Shown one piece after another: positions 1-8,327 of a DNA stretch of 64,000 nucleotides. The stretch covers positions 1 to 64,000 of the forward strand of contig JBIOXB010000137.1 of NCBI GenBank assembly GCA_044869275.1. Reading direction: 5' to 3'. The stretch is from a bacterium (GTDB taxonomy: Bacteria; Zhuqueibacterota; Zhuqueibacteria; Zhuqueibacterales; Zhuqueibacteraceae). The position numbers and the translations under genes were made by a program. Every line of letters starts with the position of its first letter. Within the stretch, counting starts at the first letter, position 1. Below the pieces are notes generated by a model. It saw only the letters and a program-made list of their open reading frames with translations. It was not told the DNA's origin and did no database searches.

Positions 1-76
1 CACCGGAGAAAATACCAATCAGGCTTATGATCGTGTGCACCACAGTAAAAGCAAATGTTGACATACCCAAAATCAT
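1..76 (-). CDS. 5' end of a hypothetical membrane protein, runs off the window edge
   Basis: Minus strand reads AAGGAGG RBS, then ATG at 76: MILGMSTFAFTVVHTIISLIGIFSG (hydrophobic). Confidence 0.6.
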   Translation of the reverse strand, partial: MILGMSTFAFTVVHTIISLIGIFSG

Positions 77-325
77 GACTCGCCTCCTTGCAAGAATCAT
101 CAGCCAGCTAAATGAAAAACACAGACTCCACATCGCGGCAGCATCGCAACCAAAAACTTTGCTAAGCATGCAGAGTCTTGCAAATTTGTACTACAAAGAA
201 CACAAAATTGCAAGAAGAAAAATCAGGCGAATGCCCGTTTTCACTTTCAATTTATTGAATGTGAAGATGGGCTGTTTTTTTGCTGAGAACACGCCCAAGT
301 GAGGGCTCCCAAATCCGATCATTCA

Positions 326-438
326 AAAGACAGAAAAATGGAAGGCAGAAAAATGTTTCTGGCTTCTCGTTGCTCCGCGGTGAGCATTGCTTTGATGATG
401 CCAAACTCCATGTTTTTGCCTCTCATTTTTCTGTCTTT
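326..438. repeat. Palindromic intergenic element with a 15-bp perfect inverted repeat
   Basis: AAAGACAGAAAAATG (326-340) / CATTTTTCTGTCTTT (424-438); related GACAGAAAGATG arms near 9065-9095 and 20477-20573. Confidence 0.65.
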
Positions 439-725
439 GCTTTTGTTTAAGCCGACTGAACACTATAAAGCATTCGGAATCTTTTTGTTCTGTGAGTGTG
501 AATTCGAACCTATCGTGTTCACCGTCCGGGCGCTAAGATTAATGTACGCACGTGGTAAACCAGGCAAGCGCCCGGACGGTGATTGAACTGTTACGAATTT
601 GCAACCACACTTGTCGCAATACAATCCAGATGCCAATTGTATGTCATTGATAACACCTTGGCCCACGTATCACAAAATTGCGATCTTTGTGAATTCGCGA
701 AGTTTTCGTGAAGGATATCAGGGGC

Positions 726-789
726 GAAGTCCGACTTGTACGAGACGAGTTTTGTAAACATCGGAGCCTTTGGGCACAAGTCGGACTTC
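726..789. repeat. 14-bp perfect inverted repeat
   Basis: GAAGTCCGACTTGT (726-739) / ACAAGTCGGACTTC (776-789). Confidence 0.7.
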
Positions 790-971
790 ATTCACCGCAC
801 GTCGGGGCTGAGCAGTGACTTTGACTCGGATGTGATGAGAAAAATGCGGCGAAGGAGAGCTTGCACGTATCGCGAAGAAGCTTGATTAAATCACGCATCG
901 AAAACTCTAACCTTGACAGAGATAACATCGTCGTCTATATTCAACCGATTAACAAAAGGCAGAACTCCTCT

Positions 972-1334
972 ATGAACCTCGATTCTCCAAAAGCAGGCCG
1001 CGAGCTTGATGCTTTGATTGGTGAAAAGATCTTCGGCGTGCGCTACGAATTCATGCATAATGATTACATGATTCCCGACCCCGAAGATCCGGTTGCGTAC
1101 GATGTTTGCCCTCATTATTCAACCGATATTGCCGCCGCGTGGCAGGTGCTTGAGAAACTATTGACCATGACTGAAAACCGGGATATTCACCTCGAGCATC
1201 TGGGAAACGACGAGACTGAGGGATATTGGGGAGTTTCGACTTGCTATCAGTTGGGTGAATGGCAGGACTGGATGAGGGCGGAGACTGCGCCTTTGGCAAT
1301 TTGCCTTGCCGCACTCCAAACAATTGCGGCGTAG
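972..1334 (+). CDS. Phage ABA sandwich domain (BC1872-like) protein
   Basis: Motifs GRELDALIGEKIFG, PHYSTDIAAAWQVLEKL, AETAPLAICLAAL; ATG at 972 preferred over TTG at 861. Confidence 0.8.
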   Translation: MNLDSPKAGRELDALIGEKIFGVRYEFMHNDYMIPDPEDPVAYDVCPHYSTDIAAAWQVLEKLLTMTENRDIHLEHLGNDETEGYWGVSTCYQLGEWQDWMRAETAPLAICLAALQTIAA

Positions 1335-1654
1335 ATCTTCAAGCTGGAAAAACGCTGAAATCCGCTGGGCACCAAGGAGATTAAATCCAACCAGAGATGT
1401 ACCTTCCGAATTCAGAAATCGCGAGTCCCGATTTCGAATCGTTGCAGAAGCTAGTTCGCTGATACTTGCCATCTTGATAGACTCACTTTTTGCTGGATAC
1501 TGGTATATTGTTTTTATTAACTTTAATCTGAATTATACTATTTTGGTCGTTGATTCAACCATCTACTGCCGCCGCGAAAGTACCCTTCAACATACCGAAT
1601 GCCTTTGCAGCACTCTATGATTGTTATTTTTTTACTATTTGTAAAAAAATTTAC

Positions 1655-1683
1655 TTGCATAAGACTTTCATTTTTTGTATATA
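1655..1683 (+). promoter_or_regulatory. Sigma70-like promoter for the retron operon
   Basis: TTGCAT (1655-1660), 17-bp spacer, TATATA (1678-1683), AT-rich upstream tract. Confidence 0.6.
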
Positions 1684-1689
1684 GTATTC

Positions 1690-1979
1690 AGTTGGGTGCT
1701 ACGCCCTGTTCTTTGAAATTGGAATGATCATGTGGTGCAAGTCGCAGAATTTCTCCTTCGACGCCGTCTAATTTATTCGTCCGGCGTCAAGCTCCTGTTT
1801 GGGAGCATAAATGGATCTCAAATCCAACTCAGGTTGCTAGATCTGAGACGCTTTTGCGCAGTACGGGAAGTATATGCCTGTTTATCCTCAACAACGGCAT
1901 ATTCGTTCACAGGTTTTTGGAAGGATGAGTAAGATATATTCATTCCTGATTAGCTACCAATTTCAAAAGGAGAAGTTCA
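1690..1979 (+). ncRNA. Putative retron msr-msd non-coding RNA
   Basis: a1/a2-like 11-bp inverted repeat TTTGAAATTGG (1712-1722) / CCAATTTCAAA (1957-1967) enclosing hairpins at 1760-1788, 1791-1806, 1816-1848, 1872-1902 and 1923-1946; upstream of a retron RT. Confidence 0.75.
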
Positions 1980-2243
1980 ATGACCGATGATGACGCTCAA
2001 GAACGGGCGTTAAGTTTGCTTGAAGAAGCTCTACAAAAAGCAGAGATGCTTTTGACTTCTTCAACACATGATCAATTGTTAGTTAGGTCTCTTTTACATG
2101 ACCTGACGAGATTAAAAACACAACTGGATGGTTTAAGGCTCAGTGGTGTTCCTCGGAAAGTGCCGGACGACGAATTTTGGCCGGTAGTTTCGCTGATTTT
2201 TTCGAAGATAGCTGAACTGCTAGTTGAAAAGCTCTTCAAATGA
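1980..2243 (+). CDS. Small helical protein, candidate retron effector/toxin
   Basis: 87 aa; strong RBS AAGGAG; coiled-coil-like N-terminus and amphipathic C-terminal helix FWPVVSLIFSKIAELLVEKLFK; lies between the ncRNA and HTH-RT. Confidence 0.7.
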   Translation: MTDDDAQERALSLLEEALQKAEMLLTSSTHDQLLVRSLLHDLTRLKTQLDGLRLSGVPRKVPDDEFWPVVSLIFSKIAELLVEKLFK

Positions 2244-2336
2244 TCGCCGAGGCAATCTCAATAAAGTAGGTTACGGGAAGAGACTTCCAAAACTGTCATC
2301 AATTTTCACTAAATATACACGCGCGAGGTCGTTGCC

Positions 2337-2681
2337 ATGACTCAGATGGGAGATGTGCTCAAGCATCTACGAATAGCATCACGTATTAAACAGAAAGCAA
2401 TGGCTGAACAACTTGGTATCTCACCAACCTATCTTTCGCTAATTGAGAACGGCCAACGAGAGCCAAGTATTGAAATCTTAGAAAAATACGCCGGCTCACT
2501 CAACGTACCCTTGGCCTTCCTTATCCTGCAAACTGAGGGCGATCTCCAGAGCTTAGATACTGAGCAACTGGAGTTGTTCGAACAAATTCGAAGACTCTTG
2601 TTTGACTTCCAGAAACTTAGATCTCAATCATCAGTGAAAAAACCCCATGGGAAGCAGTTCAAGAAAATGCGAGACTCTTAA
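2337..2681 (+). CDS. XRE/Cro-C1 family HTH protein (retron-associated)
   Basis: LKHLRIASRIKQKAMAEQLGISPTYLSLIENGQREPSIEILEKYA; overlaps the RT start by 35 nt. Confidence 0.9.
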   Translation: MTQMGDVLKHLRIASRIKQKAMAEQLGISPTYLSLIENGQREPSIEILEKYAGSLNVPLAFLILQTEGDLQSLDTEQLELFEQIRRLLFDFQKLRSQSSVKKPHGKQFKKMRDS

Positions 2682-3597
2682 AATTCATACCCACAAACAT
2701 CTTCAGTACCAGCTCGGCCTGCCATTAGGTTCGCTTTTCAAAATTGCAGATAACATTGCAAGGTATTATGAACGTTACGAAAGTGCCAAATCAGGAAAAC
2801 ATAGAATCTATTACAATCCAAAACCTGAATTGCGCGAGGTTCAAAATCGAATAAAGCAGTTACTCGAGCGTCTTTCACTGCCAGAATATTTGAAAGGCGG
2901 GATCAAGGGTGGGTCTGCGTTTACAAACGCTCAAAATCACCTCAATGCAAAGTTCTTACTGAATCTTGACGTTTCCAATTTTTATCCTACCATAAAACCC
3001 AAACGCGTTTATCAGTTGTTTATAAAGCTTGAATGTCAGCCTGATATTGCAAGGCTGCTGACAAGATTAACCACCGCCGACTATCACCTACCCACTGGAT
3101 TCATCACAAGTCCATTGATCGCCAATTTGATCATACACGATTCCTTCGGAGCACGGCTGTACGAATTAGCGCAGAGCCACAAGGCAAAATACACTCAATT
3201 CTATGACGACACGACGATTTCGGGTGGAAACTCCATTTCTCGATTGCTTTTAAAGGCTAAATCAATAATTGCACAATCTGGCTTCAAAGTACATCCGAAC
3301 AAGGGTGGGTTCTTCATTGGAAAAGAGAGGCCAGCAGTCACTGGTTTTCGAGTAGGAAAAAGAATTACTATTGATCGAAAGTATCGCAGAGACTTAAGAA
3401 AAATTCTCAGCGATTGTATAAGAATCAATCCTTCAGAATTCATTCGCTCGAAATTGCTTCCCGATGGTGCGAGACGATTTGATACTGTCGAAACTTTTCG
3501 ACAACACCTTCAGGGACGCGTGAACTACTTGAAGCACGATCCCATACAATTCAAACGGTTCAAAGAACTTTTTGATCAAATTGATTGGGAGAATTAG
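2647..3597 (+). CDS. Retron-type reverse transcriptase
   Basis: 316 aa; region X NAQNH (NAxxH), LDVSNFYPTI, LPTGFITSPLIANL, catalytic YTQFYDDTTISG, region Y VTG; no maturase or endonuclease domain. Confidence 0.93.
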   Translation: MGSSSRKCETLKIHTHKHLQYQLGLPLGSLFKIADNIARYYERYESAKSGKHRIYYNPKPELREVQNRIKQLLERLSLPEYLKGGIKGGSAFTNAQNHLNAKFLLNLDVSNFYPTIKPKRVYQLFIKLECQPDIARLLTRLTTADYHLPTGFITSPLIANLIIHDSFGARLYELAQSHKAKYTQFYDDTTISGGNSISRLLLKAKSIIAQSGFKVHPNKGGFFIGKERPAVTGFRVGKRITIDRKYRRDLRKILSDCIRINPSEFIRSKLLPDGARRFDTVETFRQHLQGRVNYLKHDPIQFKRFKELFDQIDWEN

Positions 3598-3604
3598 CAA
3601 AACT

Positions 3605-3930
3605 CACAATTTATCCTCCTCCAGAATTGGGCTATTGAAGCACACCTTCGATTCCCAATCATCCAACATTTCTCGTGATTCTTCACTTGTCACCCGCACA
3701 TATTGGCAATTGATCAACGAGTCCTTGTAGCGAATGAATCCGCGTCGGTTTGCACAGCTGCGATGACCCTGGCACCAAACCGATCTTTCTTAATGCGGTG
3801 AAGGTTTACTAGAAGTAACCGGGGCCAGACCATCCGAAAACAATAGCAGCGCATTCCAATCTTGCCTCGTTACAAAAGCACTCGCACCGATTCTTGTCAT
3901 CCCAACTCGACCTACTTTACTTTCTTCCTC
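3605..3930 (-). pseudogene. Possible degenerate PemK/MazF-like toxin remnant
   Basis: Broken minus-strand frames give AFVTRQDWNALL..LAPVTSSK and KDSLINCQYVRV, resembling MazF motifs. Confidence 0.3.
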
Positions 3931-3976
3931 ATTCTAAAGCTCGAACGATTTAAACGTAAACGACCTGTTTACCCGG

Positions 3977-4445
3977 CTAAGAAGCCTGCAACTCCTCCAA
4001 GCAAGAAACAAAACCAATTTTATATCTGCCCAAAATACGCCGCACATATCCCTTGCCGCACCAATAACTCAGCACGATAATTATCAACCCGCCGGCGAGC
4101 CAGAGGAAAACAGTGGTAGGCTCGCCGCTATGTTTGGCAAGCATGAAGAATTCCAGAAGCACGATCATACTCACGATGAGCACCGTGTAAGTTTTCATGG
4201 TGGAATCCAGTTTGCCAATCATGTAGGTCAGGGATTCGCGCAGGCTCCCGGTCAAATGCACGGAGCGCAGTTGCCGGGACTTGAACGAGAGTGTGGCGAT
4301 GAGCATGCCGACCAACAGCAGCATGAATCCCAAGTAGAGCGCGTTGGTCAAATATTCAGGCCTTGCGAAGCATTGGTAAAGACGATGGCGAGGATTATCG
4401 GCAACCGGAGATTTCCGTGCATAGCCTGCGGATTTTCTGCGAAAA
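3977..4445 (-). pseudogene. Degenerate duplicate of the membrane-protein gene at 6941-7537
   Basis: 3948-4445 aligns by eye to 6912-7425, with a small in-frame deletion, a frameshift near 4350 and no 5' end. Confidence 0.85.
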
Positions 4446-4529
4446 CTCGACAAGAACCTGCTGGTTACCCCGTGTAGTGGCATAGACTCTACTCACTAAC
4501 GACCTTTGCAACTCTCTTACGCAGTTTCG

Positions 4530-4652
4530 TAGAGTTGATATTCTCCTTTCATCTCGAACGAGAGAGCCGAAGAGCCCCGCCCATTTCACCAAGTAGCGCC
4601 GTAAAATCGGCAGGATTTTCTGTTTGATCTCGTCAATATTATTTGGGGCCAT
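4530..4652 (-). pseudogene. Truncated duplicate of the nucleotidyltransferase gene at 5264-5554
   Basis: MAPNNIDEIKQKILPILRRYLVKWAGLFGSLVR nearly matches the N-terminus of 5264-5554, then diverges before DxD. Confidence 0.8.
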
Positions 4653-4699
4653 GGTTCATTCCTCATTGATCCTGCCAATATCCAATGGCCTGTCTCCAT

Positions 4700-5059
4700 T
4701 CATGCCTGCGCTACGCGCGTCCGGTTAGACAAACGCTTGGCGCCCGCTTTCGGCTTGTGCATTTGTTCTGAGGAATTGACCAAACCTACTTGAAGCCGCT
4801 TTCCTAATGCCAACGCCGCACGTTCCAAGGTTTGCAGGGTAACAGAACCGTTTTCAGGGTCAAGCAAACGCTCAAGCGCGGCACGGCTTGTTTTCATGCG
4901 TTTTGCCATCACCGTTTTGGTAATGTTGGACGATTCCATCAACTGTGATATTTGATAAGCAACGCCCCGTTTGACTGCTACGGCTTCGGCTTCAACAAGC
5001 AAACCTTCATCCTCAAGAAATTCATCAAAATTACTGCCCACATACTTCTGGTTCATCAT
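4700..5059 (-). CDS. HigA-like XRE-family antitoxin
   Basis: MNQKYVGSNFDEFLEDEG...TKTVMAKRMKTSRAALERLLDPENGSVTLQTLERAALALGKRL; own GAGGAG RBS. Confidence 0.8.
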   Translation of the reverse strand: MMNQKYVGSNFDEFLEDEGLLVEAEAVAVKRGVAYQISQLMESSNITKTVMAKRMKTSRAALERLLDPENGSVTLQTLERAALALGKRLQVGLVNSSEQMHKPKAGAKRLSNRTRVAQA

Positions 5060-5074
5060 TGACTCCTCATCATT

Positions 5075-5179
5075 GATTCTCTTTTCTGAACGCGATAAGC
5101 TGCGAAACCATTCTCGAACAGGTTCATTGCCCGATTCGGTTCTATAAAAATTGCCTTGCAGGCGCACCCCGGTGTTCAT
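5075..5179 (-). pseudogene. N-terminal remnant of a RelE/HigB (gp49-like) toxin
   Basis: FYRTESGNEPVREWFRSL is the typical N-terminus; only about 35 codons remain, running in frame into the antitoxin. Confidence 0.75.
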
Positions 5180-5263
5180 AGAATAAATGTACTACTTTTG
5201 ATACTCACAGTCAAACGCTGACTTTGACTAAAATGTCAGAAATGTACAAACTAACATCCTGTT

Positions 5264-5554
5264 TCATAAAATGACCAACTGCTCTCGTAAGATGGCGTCT
5301 TTAATCGTCGGCTTGATTGTGTCATACTCCACCAAATCCACGCGCCGCTCCAAACTGTCTTCAATCTCCTGTTCGATTCCGATGAAGTCGAGCAGGCTGA
5401 TGTTCCTGTCGATTTCCGCCAGAATGTCAATGTCGCTATCTTCCTTGATTTCGCCTCGAACCAGAGAGCCGAAGAGCCCCGCGCGTTTCACCGCGTGGCG
5501 GCGTAAAATCGGCAAGATCTTCTGTTTGATCTCGTCAATATTGCTCGGCAGCAT
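5264..5554 (-). CDS. Minimal nucleotidyltransferase (MNT/MntA-like)
   Basis: LFGSLVRGE..SDIDIL, RRVDLV motifs; 96 aa. Confidence 0.9.
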   Translation of the reverse strand: MLPSNIDEIKQKILPILRRHAVKRAGLFGSLVRGEIKEDSDIDILAEIDRNISLLDFIGIEQEIEDSLERRVDLVEYDTIKPTIKDAILREQLVIL

Positions 5555-5699
5555 GGTTACACCACAAGAGTAAAGTCAAACTTGCAGGAATTATTCAATT
5601 ACAGTCAATTCTAGAAAGTTCAAATCTATCCTTGATTGTCCGAAAAAAGTATGCTATTTTTTCTCGGATCAAAATTGTACTCATGGTTTGACATCATGA

Positions 5700-6059
5700 A
5701 TGAATAAGCCAAGAGAAAACGTTATGGGTCTTTCTCAACCTGGAACGACAGAAGTAGCCGCACGGATCACCCAAAGAATTGTGGAACGTTTTCATCCACT
5801 GCGTGTCATTCTATTCGGCTCTCATGCGCGCGGCGAGGCAGACAGCGACAGTGATTATGATCTGCTCATCATCGCGCCTTCAGATAAACCTCGTTGGCAA
5901 CGCACAGTGCCGGTATATCGTGCGCTTGCAGGAATGGGCGTTCCCAAAGATATTGTCTGGTGGACACCTGAGGAGATCGCAGAGTGGGACGGCGTAAAAT
6001 CGCATTTCATCAATACCGTCCTTCGCGAAGGAAAAGTTCTTTATGAAAACGCCATTTGA
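5700..6059 (+). CDS. Nucleotidyltransferase domain protein (MNT antitoxin)
   Basis: ILFGSHARGEADSDSDYDLLII; overlaps the HEPN gene. Confidence 0.9.
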   Translation: MNKPRENVMGLSQPGTTEVAARITQRIVERFHPLRVILFGSHARGEADSDSDYDLLIIAPSDKPRWQRTVPVYRALAGMGVPKDIVWWTPEEIAEWDGVKSHFINTVLREGKVLYENAI

Positions 6060-6456
6060 TAACGCCAAAGGACTTTTGGAAAAAGCGGCCAACGATTTAG
6101 TGGCAGCACAAGCTACAATGGCCACCGGTCGAGCGCTGGACACGGTTTGTTTCCATGCCCAGCAATCCGTCGAGAAAAGTTTGAAAGCAATACTCGCGTT
6201 GCATGATATTGAATACCCGCGACGGCACGATTTGAATGAGTTGATAGAATTGATCAGGCCGCTTCTCCCAGAAATCATCTCATACGAAAATCGCATCATG
6301 ACCTTGTCCCCGTTCGCTGTTGAAATTCGGTATGACACTCTGTTTGATCCATCAAGCGAAGAAGCTCACGAAGCATTAAAACTTGCAGATGAGTTTCACA
6401 CCTTTACCAGCAAGATCGTCGAAACACAAGCTCCCAACATGCCGAGCAAAAAATGA
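6043..6456 (+). CDS. HEPN domain protein
   Basis: CFHAQQSVEKSLKA, HDL, AVEIRY motifs; coupled to MNT. Confidence 0.9.
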   Translation: MKTPFDNAKGLLEKAANDLVAAQATMATGRALDTVCFHAQQSVEKSLKAILALHDIEYPRRHDLNELIELIRPLLPEIISYENRIMTLSPFAVEIRYDTLFDPSSEEAHEALKLADEFHTFTSKIVETQAPNMPSKK

Positions 6457-6858: not shown

Positions 6859-6940
6859 GGCTGTTCAAGCAAAATATGTTTGATCGCTGAAACCGACTTG
6901 ATGTGCGGACAATTTAGACGTAAACAGCCCGTTTGCCCCG

Positions 6941-7537
6941 CTACGAAGCCTGCAACTCCTCCAAGCAAGACACCAATTGCACTTTATACTTCCCCAAAAT
7001 ACGCCGCACATATCCCTTGCCGCACCAATAACTCAATGCGATAGTTATAAACCCGCCGGCGAGCCAGAGCAACACAGTGGCAGGCTCGCCGCTATGTTTG
7101 GCAACCATGAAGAATTCTAAAAGCACGACCATGCTCACCATGAGTGCCATGTACGCGGCCATATAGCTTTTCATGGTGGAATCCAGCTTGCCAATCATGT
7201 AGGTCAAGGATTCGCGCAGACTCCCGGTCAATTGCACAGAGCGCAGTTGCCGGGATTTGTGGGAGAGTGTGGCGATGAGCATGCCGAACAACAGCAGTAT
7301 GAATCCCAAGTAGAGCACCTTGGTCAAATTCAGGCCTTGCAAGGCATTGGTCAAGAGGAGAACCAGGATGATCACGTAATAGGAAATTTCCGTACGCAGC
7401 CGGCGGCGGATTTTTCGGCGAATGTCGGTGCTTTTGTCTTGCAAGAGTTGCATGATTTCCTCCTTGCTCAATTGTTTTTCGCGCGCCTGAGCAGCAGATT
7501 CCTGTTTCCAGTTTTTTTTCAGCTCGTCCAGGTTCAT
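6941..7537 (-). CDS. Membrane protein downstream of an ECF sigma (putative anti-sigma)
   Basis: MNLDELKKNW start, about four hydrophobic segments, ATGA coupling to the sigma gene. Confidence 0.75.
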   Translation of the reverse strand: MNLDELKKNWKQESAAQAREKQLSKEEIMQLLQDKSTDIRRKIRRRLRTEISYYVIILVLLLTNALQGLNLTKVLYLGFILLLFGMLIATLSHKSRQLRSVQLTGSLRESLTYMIGKLDSTMKSYMAAYMALMVSMVVLLEFFMVAKHSGEPATVLLWLAGGFITIALSYWCGKGYVRRILGKYKVQLVSCLEELQAS

Positions 7538-8037: not shown

Positions 8038-8327
8038 TGCACGTCTGGGTTTATCTGGTTAGTCGCACGGCTTGCCGAAATTTTACACTGCAAAGAGGCC
8101 TTAATGTAGTCAAGATTGAAATTTTTGCCTTGTGCCTCAAGGGATTTTTCTTGTTGTGGCGGGCGTTGCCTTACAGATGTTCTCGAAGACTACGATGGCG
8201 GTAAACCCGCCTGAAAAAACTAAAGCCTTGACGGAGATAAACTCGTCGTCTATATTCAAGCACTCCTACCACCGCCAACGACGCGACATCGCTGGCTTTT
8301 TGAAAAACAGTTCAGGGAAGCAACGGT

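Follow-up and report, generated by a model that had tools for sequence, protein, structure and literature searches.

Type VI retrons have been defined as those in which a clade-3 reverse transcriptase (RT) is accompanied by a Cro/C1-type helix-turn-helix (HTH) protein of 91–110 aa, and their auxiliary small proteins (SPs; 75–79 aa, clusters 2075_1, 2760_1 and 3272_1) are described as having a three-helix-bundle fold (Mestre et al., 2020, PMC7736814). The layout reported for the type is a structured leader followed by genes in the order SP-HTH-RT (Garcia-Rodriguez et al., bioRxiv 10.64898/2026.04.27.721009). Here we analyze a locus of this layout at positions 1655–3597 of a 64,000-nt window, by which we mean the whole stretch of DNA that was analyzed (GenBank assembly GCA_044869275.1, contig JBIOXB010000137.1, positions 1 to 64,000 of the forward strand), from a bacterium of the phylum Zhuqueibacterota. 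We propose that the locus is very probably an intact type VI retron, acting as an anti-phage system of the abortive-infection style. The kind of system is already known and no new category is opened; what is new is a rare and divergent RT/HTH/SP clade, found in a phylum with few reference genomes, whose leader is predicted to have two competing helices that occlude the ribosome-binding site of the SP.

Two described retrons provide the closest comparisons. For Retron-Vpa2, one enriched hybrid RNA is reported to comprise both template RNA and SP coding sequence, the SP is a toxin whose ribosome-binding site and start codon are sequestered by RNA structure, and multicopy single-stranded DNA (msDNA) made in response to phage de-represses its translation (Zhang et al., bioRxiv 10.1101/2025.10.22.683967). 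In Retron-Sen3, the SP is reported to be a constitutively made toxin and the HTH protein its antitoxin, which also binds the RT, and the trigger is inhibition of RecBCD (Garcia-Rodriguez et al., bioRxiv 10.64898/2026.04.27.721009). According to the same report, leaders of the cl2075 group have terminal inverted repeats with the SP ribosome-binding site in the basal stem, a 5-bp stem-loop just 5' of the 5' repeat, and a long-range IR1-IR2 pair that flanks the SP gene. A C-terminal hydrophobic core is described as necessary for SP toxicity in both Vpa2 and Sen3 (Zhang et al.; Garcia-Rodriguez et al.). It should be noted that six of the six type VI retrons tested earlier are reported to have had no detectable single-stranded DNA at baseline (Garcia-Rodriguez et al.), so that the lack of an RT-dependent DNA product would be a weak argument against a retron at a locus of this type.

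Assignment of the locus to type VI

The list of open reading frames (ORFs) contains three full-length ORFs on the plus strand, at the positions given for them in the sequence-only reading of this DNA that preceded our analysis: SP (1980–2243, 87 aa), a small helical protein and putative toxic effector; HTH (2337–2681, 114 aa), of the Cro/C1-type DNA-binding protein family found in type VI retrons; and RT (2647–3597, 316 aa), a retron reverse transcriptase whose gene overlaps that of the HTH protein by 35 nt. Compared with PADLOC-DB, the RT has RT_VI as its best model (231.4 bits, 3.1e-69), followed by RT_III-A at 171.8 bits, and the HTH protein has HTH_VI as its best model (6e-23, profile positions 2–87 of 92), the next model being at 8.8e-9. 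Pfam places the HTH protein in HTH_3 (5.6e-15) and the RT in RVT_1 (3.7e-14), and the SP has no match among the Pfam or PADLOC profiles. The RT carries the motifs NAQNH at residues 94–98, FYDD at 185–188 and VTG at 231–233, and NAxxH (region X) and VTG (region Y) are described as signatures of retron RTs (Mestre et al., PMC7736814). The sequence-only reading had proposed a type VI-like retron in which an XRE-type HTH gene overlaps the start of a compact RT with NAQNH and VTG. Each of these points is borne out, by the RT_VI and HTH_VI models that the PADLOC comparison it had suggested returned as the best ones, by the HTH_3 match and the gene overlap, by the two signature motifs, and by the SP-HTH-RT order.

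The relatives of the window proteins behave in the same way. RT_VI is the best PADLOC model for all four RT relatives (65–77% identity), with a margin of 24 bits over the next model for one of them (P0009), and HTH_VI is the best model for all six HTH relatives (53–81% identity); the FxDD motif is invariant in the five RTs of the window clade. Relative to the type VI retrons described by Mestre et al. (PMC7736814), the locus is alike in the NAxxH and VTG of its RT, which is probably of the clade-3 type, and in its Cro/C1 HTH partner, and it differs in the length of the HTH protein (114 aa versus 91–110) and of the SP (87 aa versus 75–79). Identity of the RT to those type VI RTs from named organisms that were compared is about 27–37%. 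A tree of 22 rows places the 5 rows of the window clade (100/100) next to 8 other RT_VI rows as their sister group, and the branch separating these from the III-A, XI, XII, II-A and "other" rows is supported at 94/94; the rows of this tree and of the 24-row tree considered below are fetched sequences labelled by PADLOC, with type IV and type V references left out. We hold the assignment to type VI with great confidence, mainly because of the profile scores, the HTH_VI partner and the gene layout.

Close relatives are known as protein records of read-archive assemblies only. The contigs reported for the SP, HTH and RT relatives have matching lengths (3549, 2425, 30669, 2850, 2123 and 1088), from which we infer that the trio travels together, and the starts and lengths of all three proteins are conserved in relatives down to 39–65% identity. 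The RT clade is rare and divergent. Scans for the relatives' DNA gave two distant loci in genome contigs (37% and 31% identity) and two in metagenome contigs (34% and 31%), and two scans of viral contigs, with the alignments of the RT and of the SP as queries, found none. With the window RT as query, a search of 60 related genomes did not find the RT; the three distant matches there (29–32% identity) comprise two RT-TIR XII and one RT III-A. Within the host phylum, 4 of 167 reference genomes reach E ≤ 1e-30 to RT_VI, the window's own included; the remaining three score better as XII (two) or II-A (one), and no further true RT_VI was found among the 167.

The small protein and its putative restraint

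The 87-aa ORF, which had been regarded as an unrecognised orphan, corresponds to a known component of type VI retrons, the SP. Its sequence family is new, and the class of small three-helix SPs has already been described, so that the suggestion of a possibly new small effector stands for the family and falls for the class. In all six of the other loci with RT_VI and HTH_VI that were examined, the HTH gene is immediately preceded by a small ORF whose C-terminal part is hydrophobic. An AlphaFold2 model built from the family alignment has helices at residues 3–27, 32–54 and 63–86, with a mean predicted local distance difference test (pLDDT) value of 79.2. The last helix (residues 64–87) is the most hydrophobic part of the protein (Kyte-Doolittle values up to 1.9) and is amphipathic, with a moderate hydrophobic moment of 0.4–0.55. 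With a pI of 5.0 the SP is acidic, unlike the basic HTH protein (pI 9.3) and RT (pI 10.0).

The SP family has eight sequences of 79–95 aa, the seven relatives being 39–84% identical to the window SP; among the positions that do not vary are an FW motif and, where the last helix begins, S..IF. A word-indexed search returned three relatives besides the window SP itself, one further cluster member was added, and an exhaustive HMMER search over 1.84 billion representatives returned five matches at E ≤ 0.001. One of these five, a 615-aa repeat protein, has no matched stretch and was taken as spurious. No SP relatives were found in plasmid records. A Foldseek comparison of the SP model with the PDB gave no matches at E ≤ 0.001, and a wide VIA-align comparison gave generic helical bundles only (best Z 9.8, in a range that is common for helical models); the epsilon antitoxin is not among the best 50 VIA-align rows, which excludes nothing. 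The neighbors of the SP in the ESM Atlas are hypothetical Pseudomonadota proteins of 77–86 aa with scores of 0.83–0.85, below the 0.9 level, and serve as leads only.

By description, the window SP resembles the SPs of Sen3 and cl2075, which are reported to have about 80 aa, a core of helices and a C-terminal helix that is both amphipathic and hydrophobic (Garcia-Rodriguez et al.); the likeness to the cl2075 SPs is drawn from that description, not from the sequences of the cluster, and the window SP is longer, at 87 aa. A hydrophobic C-terminal helix is also shared with Vpa2 and Eco12 of the "Large" lineage, and in Vpa2 toxicity is reported to depend on it (Zhang et al.). The Vpa2-like SPs, including those of six aligned loci, are 48–63 aa long and rich in lysine and arginine (the Vpa2 SP has 55 aa), in contrast to the 87 aa and pI of 5.0 of the window SP. 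Membership in the Vpa2-like sublineage, which would call for a short, basic and homologous SP, was considered and rejected, the hhalign probability against the six short basic SPs being 0.6% with one aligned column. Since the window SP has no sequence similarity to the short basic SPs of Vpa2-like loci or to an 88-aa SP from an Aureispira plasmid, its assignment as a toxin draws on position and fold only; on this analogy we consider that the SP is probably a toxin.

The HTH protein is the putative restraint on the SP. A co-fold of the HTH and SP alignments has a score of 0.33, and the best of three controls reaches 0.02; across the runs contact agreement is at least 31% and partner pLDDT at least 52. 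Of the solved complexes 116 of 157 reach the mark applied to such co-folds, as do 2 of 215 mismatched pairs; those that reach it at scores of 0.60 or less are 18 of the 157 solved complexes and both of the passing mismatches. The predicted contact thus lends weak support to a direct, Sen3-like neutralization, towards which it shifts the odds slightly, and we put the prospect that the HTH protein neutralizes the SP directly at a little under even.

Three further loci were noted in the comparison. A type VI retron on a plasmid of Aureispira anguillae (L026, 2149–3620) has an acidic SP of 88 aa that is like the window SP in size and style. On a plasmid of Microvirga terrae (L027, 2293–4740), a type VI-like SP-HTH-RT arrangement is directly followed on the same strand by a TIR-domain gene, and on a Salmonella phage contig (L024, 1560–2777) a basic small ORF of 75 aa is directly followed by a retron-like RT, with no HTH gene between them.

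The leader RNA and its predicted competing helices

The region at 1690–1979 on the plus strand is the candidate msr-msd, the non-coding part of a predicted hybrid RNA, and folds into several short hairpins between closing helices. The evidence for its structure is single-sequence folding combined with shuffle tests. The fold of 1690–1985 has an energy of –92.7 kcal/mol, versus –75.0 ± 5.0 for shuffled sequences (z = –3.5, none of 200 shuffles as good), and that of leader plus SP gene (1690–2340) has –201.9 kcal/mol (z = –4.3, none of 20 shuffles as good). An 11-bp inverted repeat pairs 1712–1722 with 1957–1967, and a perfect helix of at least 11 bp between distant sites arises in 2 of 300 dinucleotide shuffles. 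A second helix is formed between an anti-Shine-Dalgarno arm, GAAUUUCUCCUU, at 1747–1758 and 1967–1978. It comprises 12 bp including one G-U, and in it the anti-Shine-Dalgarno CUCCUU pairs with the Shine-Dalgarno sequence of the SP, AAGGAG, read from the sequence at 1967–1972; the 3' arms of both closing helices hence lie together within 1957–1978. Helices of at least 12 bp with at most one G-U occur in 5 of 300 shuffles, and two such helices together in 1 of 300. The second helix dominates the ensemble (pair probability 0.995) and excludes the 11-bp helix, which costs 5.8 kcal/mol to force, and the mean unpaired probability of AAGGAG is 0.04. The leader of about 290 nt had been read as structured and closed by the 11-bp repeat; the fold and the repeat are real, but closure by the 11-bp helix meets a stronger rival in the 12-bp anti-Shine-Dalgarno helix.

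When the 11-bp helix is forced, it extends to 1707–1722/1957–1973, including pairing to 1969–1971 and 1973, so that the GGA of the SP Shine-Dalgarno sequence remains paired. The 5' arm of this a1/a2-like basal helix (1707–1722, core 1712–1722) then directly abuts a short hairpin at 1694–1706, GGGUG-CUA-CGCCC, with a 5-bp stem and a 3-nt loop. As modeled, the SP ribosome-binding site is occluded in both conformers, and we give even chances to translational occlusion contributing to control. The forced conformer reproduces in the model the layout published for cl2075 leaders, a likeness of form for which homology is not claimed. Specifically, the locus is like Sen3 and cl2075 in its SP-HTH-RT order with the HTH gene overlapping that of the RT, in a leader of about 280 nt that is predicted to be closed by inverted repeats with the basal stem holding the SP ribosome-binding site, and in the 5-bp stem-loop directly 5' of the 5' repeat, here at 1694–1706 (Garcia-Rodriguez et al.). 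It is unlike them in that its host is neither a Beta- nor a Gammaproteobacterium, in that its leader is a string of short hairpins where the report describes one stem-loop of about 166 nt (Garcia-Rodriguez et al.), and in that a second and stronger anti-Shine-Dalgarno helix (1747–1758) competes with the terminal repeat. An IR1-IR2-like long-range pair of 9 bp between 1915–1923 and CUUCCAAAA at 2284–2292 is at about chance level, and other pairs between the leader and the SP region (1725–1737/2062–2074 and 1770–1785/2162–2177) are each near chance level.

With Vpa2 and Eco12 the locus would share a hybrid RNA that joins template RNA and toxin coding sequence, and it shares an SP ribosome-binding site buried in structure and the HTH and RT genes lying 3' of it (Zhang et al.). 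Leaders of other type VI loci (L015, L014, L023, L025 and L021) are also structured, with z between –2.75 and –5.5 over the six including that of the window. Four of these five, from proteobacterial or phage loci (L015, L014, L023 and L025), have a long perfect hairpin with a GGCGA-containing loop, and a similar hairpin in L021 has another loop; the long GGCGA-type hairpin is not seen in the window leader. The direct repeats in 1690–2340 form nine families, about the number expected by chance on a hand estimate (the best being the 9-mer TACGGGAAG at 1862 and 2272), and include no convincing counterpart of the 7-nt loop repeats of Vpa2. An Rfam scan of 1–6000 matched no family, with only a sub-threshold RAGATH-8 at 4607–4678.

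Sequences close to the leader and SP gene occur in RNA libraries. A search of public runs with 1650–3600 gave 8 runs from 5 studies, the probable source sample included; runs X2, X6 and X8 are among them, with small or partial shares. One DNA run was compared with 1500–3700 together with three RNA runs, which come from three studies (sediment and soil metatranscriptomes). The RNA-library contigs are 97–98% identical to the window and cover 1706–1898, 1748–1978 and 2062–2323, all inside the predicted hybrid RNA, and one of them matches the domain of the anti-Shine-Dalgarno helix almost exactly; such contigs show neither RNA ends nor strand nor level, and DNA may occur in RNA libraries. None of the contigs of the three RNA runs lies on 2324–3700 (HTH and RT) or 1500–1705, a gap that proves nothing. 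The DNA run (X3) contributed three 151-nt pieces only. Nine substitutions are listed in the RNA-library contigs, six in the leader and three in the SP gene; two of the latter are at third codon positions and the other is A78V, which is the residue of three SP relatives (P0002, P0003 and P0004). Since the matching contigs come from three different studies, close relatives of the retron, as judged from these sequences, occur in several habitats.

Upstream of the leader, promoter-like hexamers lie at 1655–1685 on the plus strand (TTGCAT at 1655–1660 and TATAGT at 1680–1685, with a 19-nt spacer); an alternative –10-like hexamer, TATATA at 1678–1683, reduces the spacer from TTGCAT to 17 nt. The single promoter-like element claimed in the sequence-only reading is a weak, visual match: a consensus promoter scan of the stretch did not include the TTGCAT/TATAGT pair among its six reported sites, with 5.2 ± 1.9 expected by chance. 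Just 5' of the –35-like hexamer is a perfect 10-bp A/T palindrome at 1626–1650, ATTTTTTTAC-N5-GTAAAAAAAT, which might serve the HTH protein as an operator or might be mere A/T-rich sequence. The spacer between the SP and HTH genes (2244–2336) contains CUUCCAAAA and the HTH ribosome-binding site, GAGG, which was read from the sequence at 2325–2328.

Proposed working, alternatives and setting

Based on these features and on the two characterized retrons, we put forward a mechanism for the locus. We propose that a single transcript begins near 1690 and that its first part would be a hybrid RNA in which a folded non-coding section, likely the template for reverse transcription, is followed by the coding sequence of the 87-aa SP. 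The SP would be the toxic effector, by analogy with Retron-Vpa2 and Retron-Sen3, and because its ribosome-binding site is buried in a helix with the upstream leader, its translation would be held down. We expect the HTH protein and the RT to interact with the RNA and with one another, and restraint by the HTH protein would consist in limiting reverse transcription, as in Vpa2, in direct binding of the SP in the role of an antitoxin, as in Sen3, or in both. SP activity would then be released when phage functions (recombination proteins, RecBCD inhibitors) interfere with the processing of DNA ends, and the infected cell would stop growing. The claim of an intact anti-phage retron in a poorly studied lineage, made before our analysis, is upheld as to the intact type VI gene set and the phylum with few reference genomes, and its anti-phage part is by analogy.

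A more far-reaching version of this mechanism is that the clade is a separate, deep-branching sublineage of type VI, with its own SP family and with two mutually exclusive helices acting on one Shine-Dalgarno sequence, where a switch from one helix to the other could link initiation of reverse transcription with de-repression of toxin translation. In such a sublineage, the a1/a2-like terminal helix would set up priming and the stronger internal anti-Shine-Dalgarno helix would be its rival, and the hybrid RNA would be so abundant in nature that sediment and soil metatranscriptomes from three studies yield assemblies of it. We regard this combination as unlikely.

Several observations weigh against reading the locus as an intact anti-phage retron of type VI. 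The RT_VI scores of the window clade (229–233 bits) are below those of proteobacterial members (260–327 bits). In the tree of 24 rows the deep nodes collapse, the 18 RT_VI rows being held together at 75/76 support, and joining of the window clade to non-VI rows is not rejected (p-value of the approximately unbiased test, p-AU, 0.227), so that tree placement is compatible with type VI and not decisive. The SP also has no sequence similarity to the 88-aa SP of the Aureispira plasmid retron, as it has none to the short basic SPs of Vpa2-like loci. One of three HTH-SP co-fold runs scored 0.02. Of the six leader substitutions, two keep a predicted pair, one breaks one and three are unpaired, and coming from near-identical relatives they are uninformative on covariation. 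The RNA-library contigs are a hint that the leader/SP region is expressed and do not prove transcription. SP toxicity, the antitoxin role of the HTH protein, synthesis of single-stranded DNA, the triggers and defense itself are carried over from the two characterized relatives.

We consider it extremely improbable that the RT is not that of a retron and belongs to another defense RT class (DRT/UG, Abi) or to a group II intron, with the HTH gene and the small ORF as unrelated neighbors. The indecisive tree placement and the absence of a match to Rfam retron RNA families would allow it, but the 25 best PADLOC matches listed are all retron RT models with RT_VI first, NAxxH and VTG are present, the adjoining and overlapping HTH is HTH_VI, the SP/HTH/RT trio apparently co-occurs in relatives, and the 316-aa RT is without maturase or endonuclease domains in Pfam. 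A decaying or inert remnant, whose genes are open by the chance of recent acquisition and which gives its host no defense, is suggested by truncated duplicates nearby (3942–4656 versus 6906–7373 and 5449–5558) and by the F that the RT has in place of the usual Y of YxDD. That F is invariant across the five RTs of the clade, however, the three ORFs are full length with conserved starts and lengths in relatives, and the leader/SP region recurs in the RNA libraries of three studies with changes that are mostly silent or conservative, and we therefore think such a remnant very unlikely.

The locus could also be a type VI retron in which the SP is an acidic, three-helix antitoxin-like or adaptor subunit and toxicity comes from another component or a host target. 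The acidity of the SP next to a basic HTH protein and a basic RT would suit such a role, the three-helix SPs of type VI have been likened to epsilon antitoxins (Mestre et al., 2020, PMC7736814), and no sequence link ties the window SP to SPs of experimentally shown toxicity. In both characterized type VI retrons, however, the SP is reported to be the toxin and the HTH protein to restrain it (Zhang et al.; Garcia-Rodriguez et al.), the cl2075 SPs (79 aa, with a helical core and amphipathic C-terminal helix), whose features the window SP shares, are reported to be toxic (Garcia-Rodriguez et al.), and the buried ribosome-binding site is that of the SP and not of the HTH gene, which fits a product needed at a low level. 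We judge a non-toxic SP to be improbable, and the reading that we prefer is still that of an intact type VI retron with the SP as its probable toxin.

Horizontal acquisition of the retron fits the low GC content of the operon (42%, versus 45–57% in the flanks), the failure to find the RT in related genomes and an upstream ORF with a phage domain. This ORF, at 861–1334 directly 5' of the retron, has a Pfam phage ABA sandwich domain (5.2e-14) and hints at a phage-derived or mobile context. On the other side of the retron, the decayed duplicates at 3942–4656 have ORFs that are truncated in that copy: 3942–4399 repeats 6906–7373 (a membrane protein adjoining an extracytoplasmic function (ECF) sigma factor gene) at 80–90% identity, and 4547–4656 repeats 5449–5558 (a nucleotidyltransferase gene) at 85% identity. 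Two nucleotidyltransferase genes, at 5264–5554 (minus strand) and 5700–6059 (plus strand), match the PADLOC candidate family PDC-S09, and the second of them forms an MNT/HEPN toxin-antitoxin-like pair with a HEPN gene at 6043–6456 (plus strand). A 44-nt direct repeat (86% identity) at 901–944 and 8216–8259 brackets 7.3 kb that contain the retron and the toxin-antitoxin-like genes.

Type VI retrons have been characterized only in 2025–2026, and the two studied examples, as reported, differ in their control logic, one mode being msDNA-dependent translation and the other a post-translational toxin-antitoxin pair. To these the locus adds an intact type VI example whose host belongs neither to the Proteobacteria nor to the Bacteroidota, a new family of SP sequences with eight members (the window SP and its seven relatives), and a leader in which Sen3-like features are joined by a strong predicted anti-Shine-Dalgarno helix. 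Its compact RT and non-coding RNA form a pair of possible use for retron tools, and the locus would be a useful third test case for which of the two control modes is ancestral.

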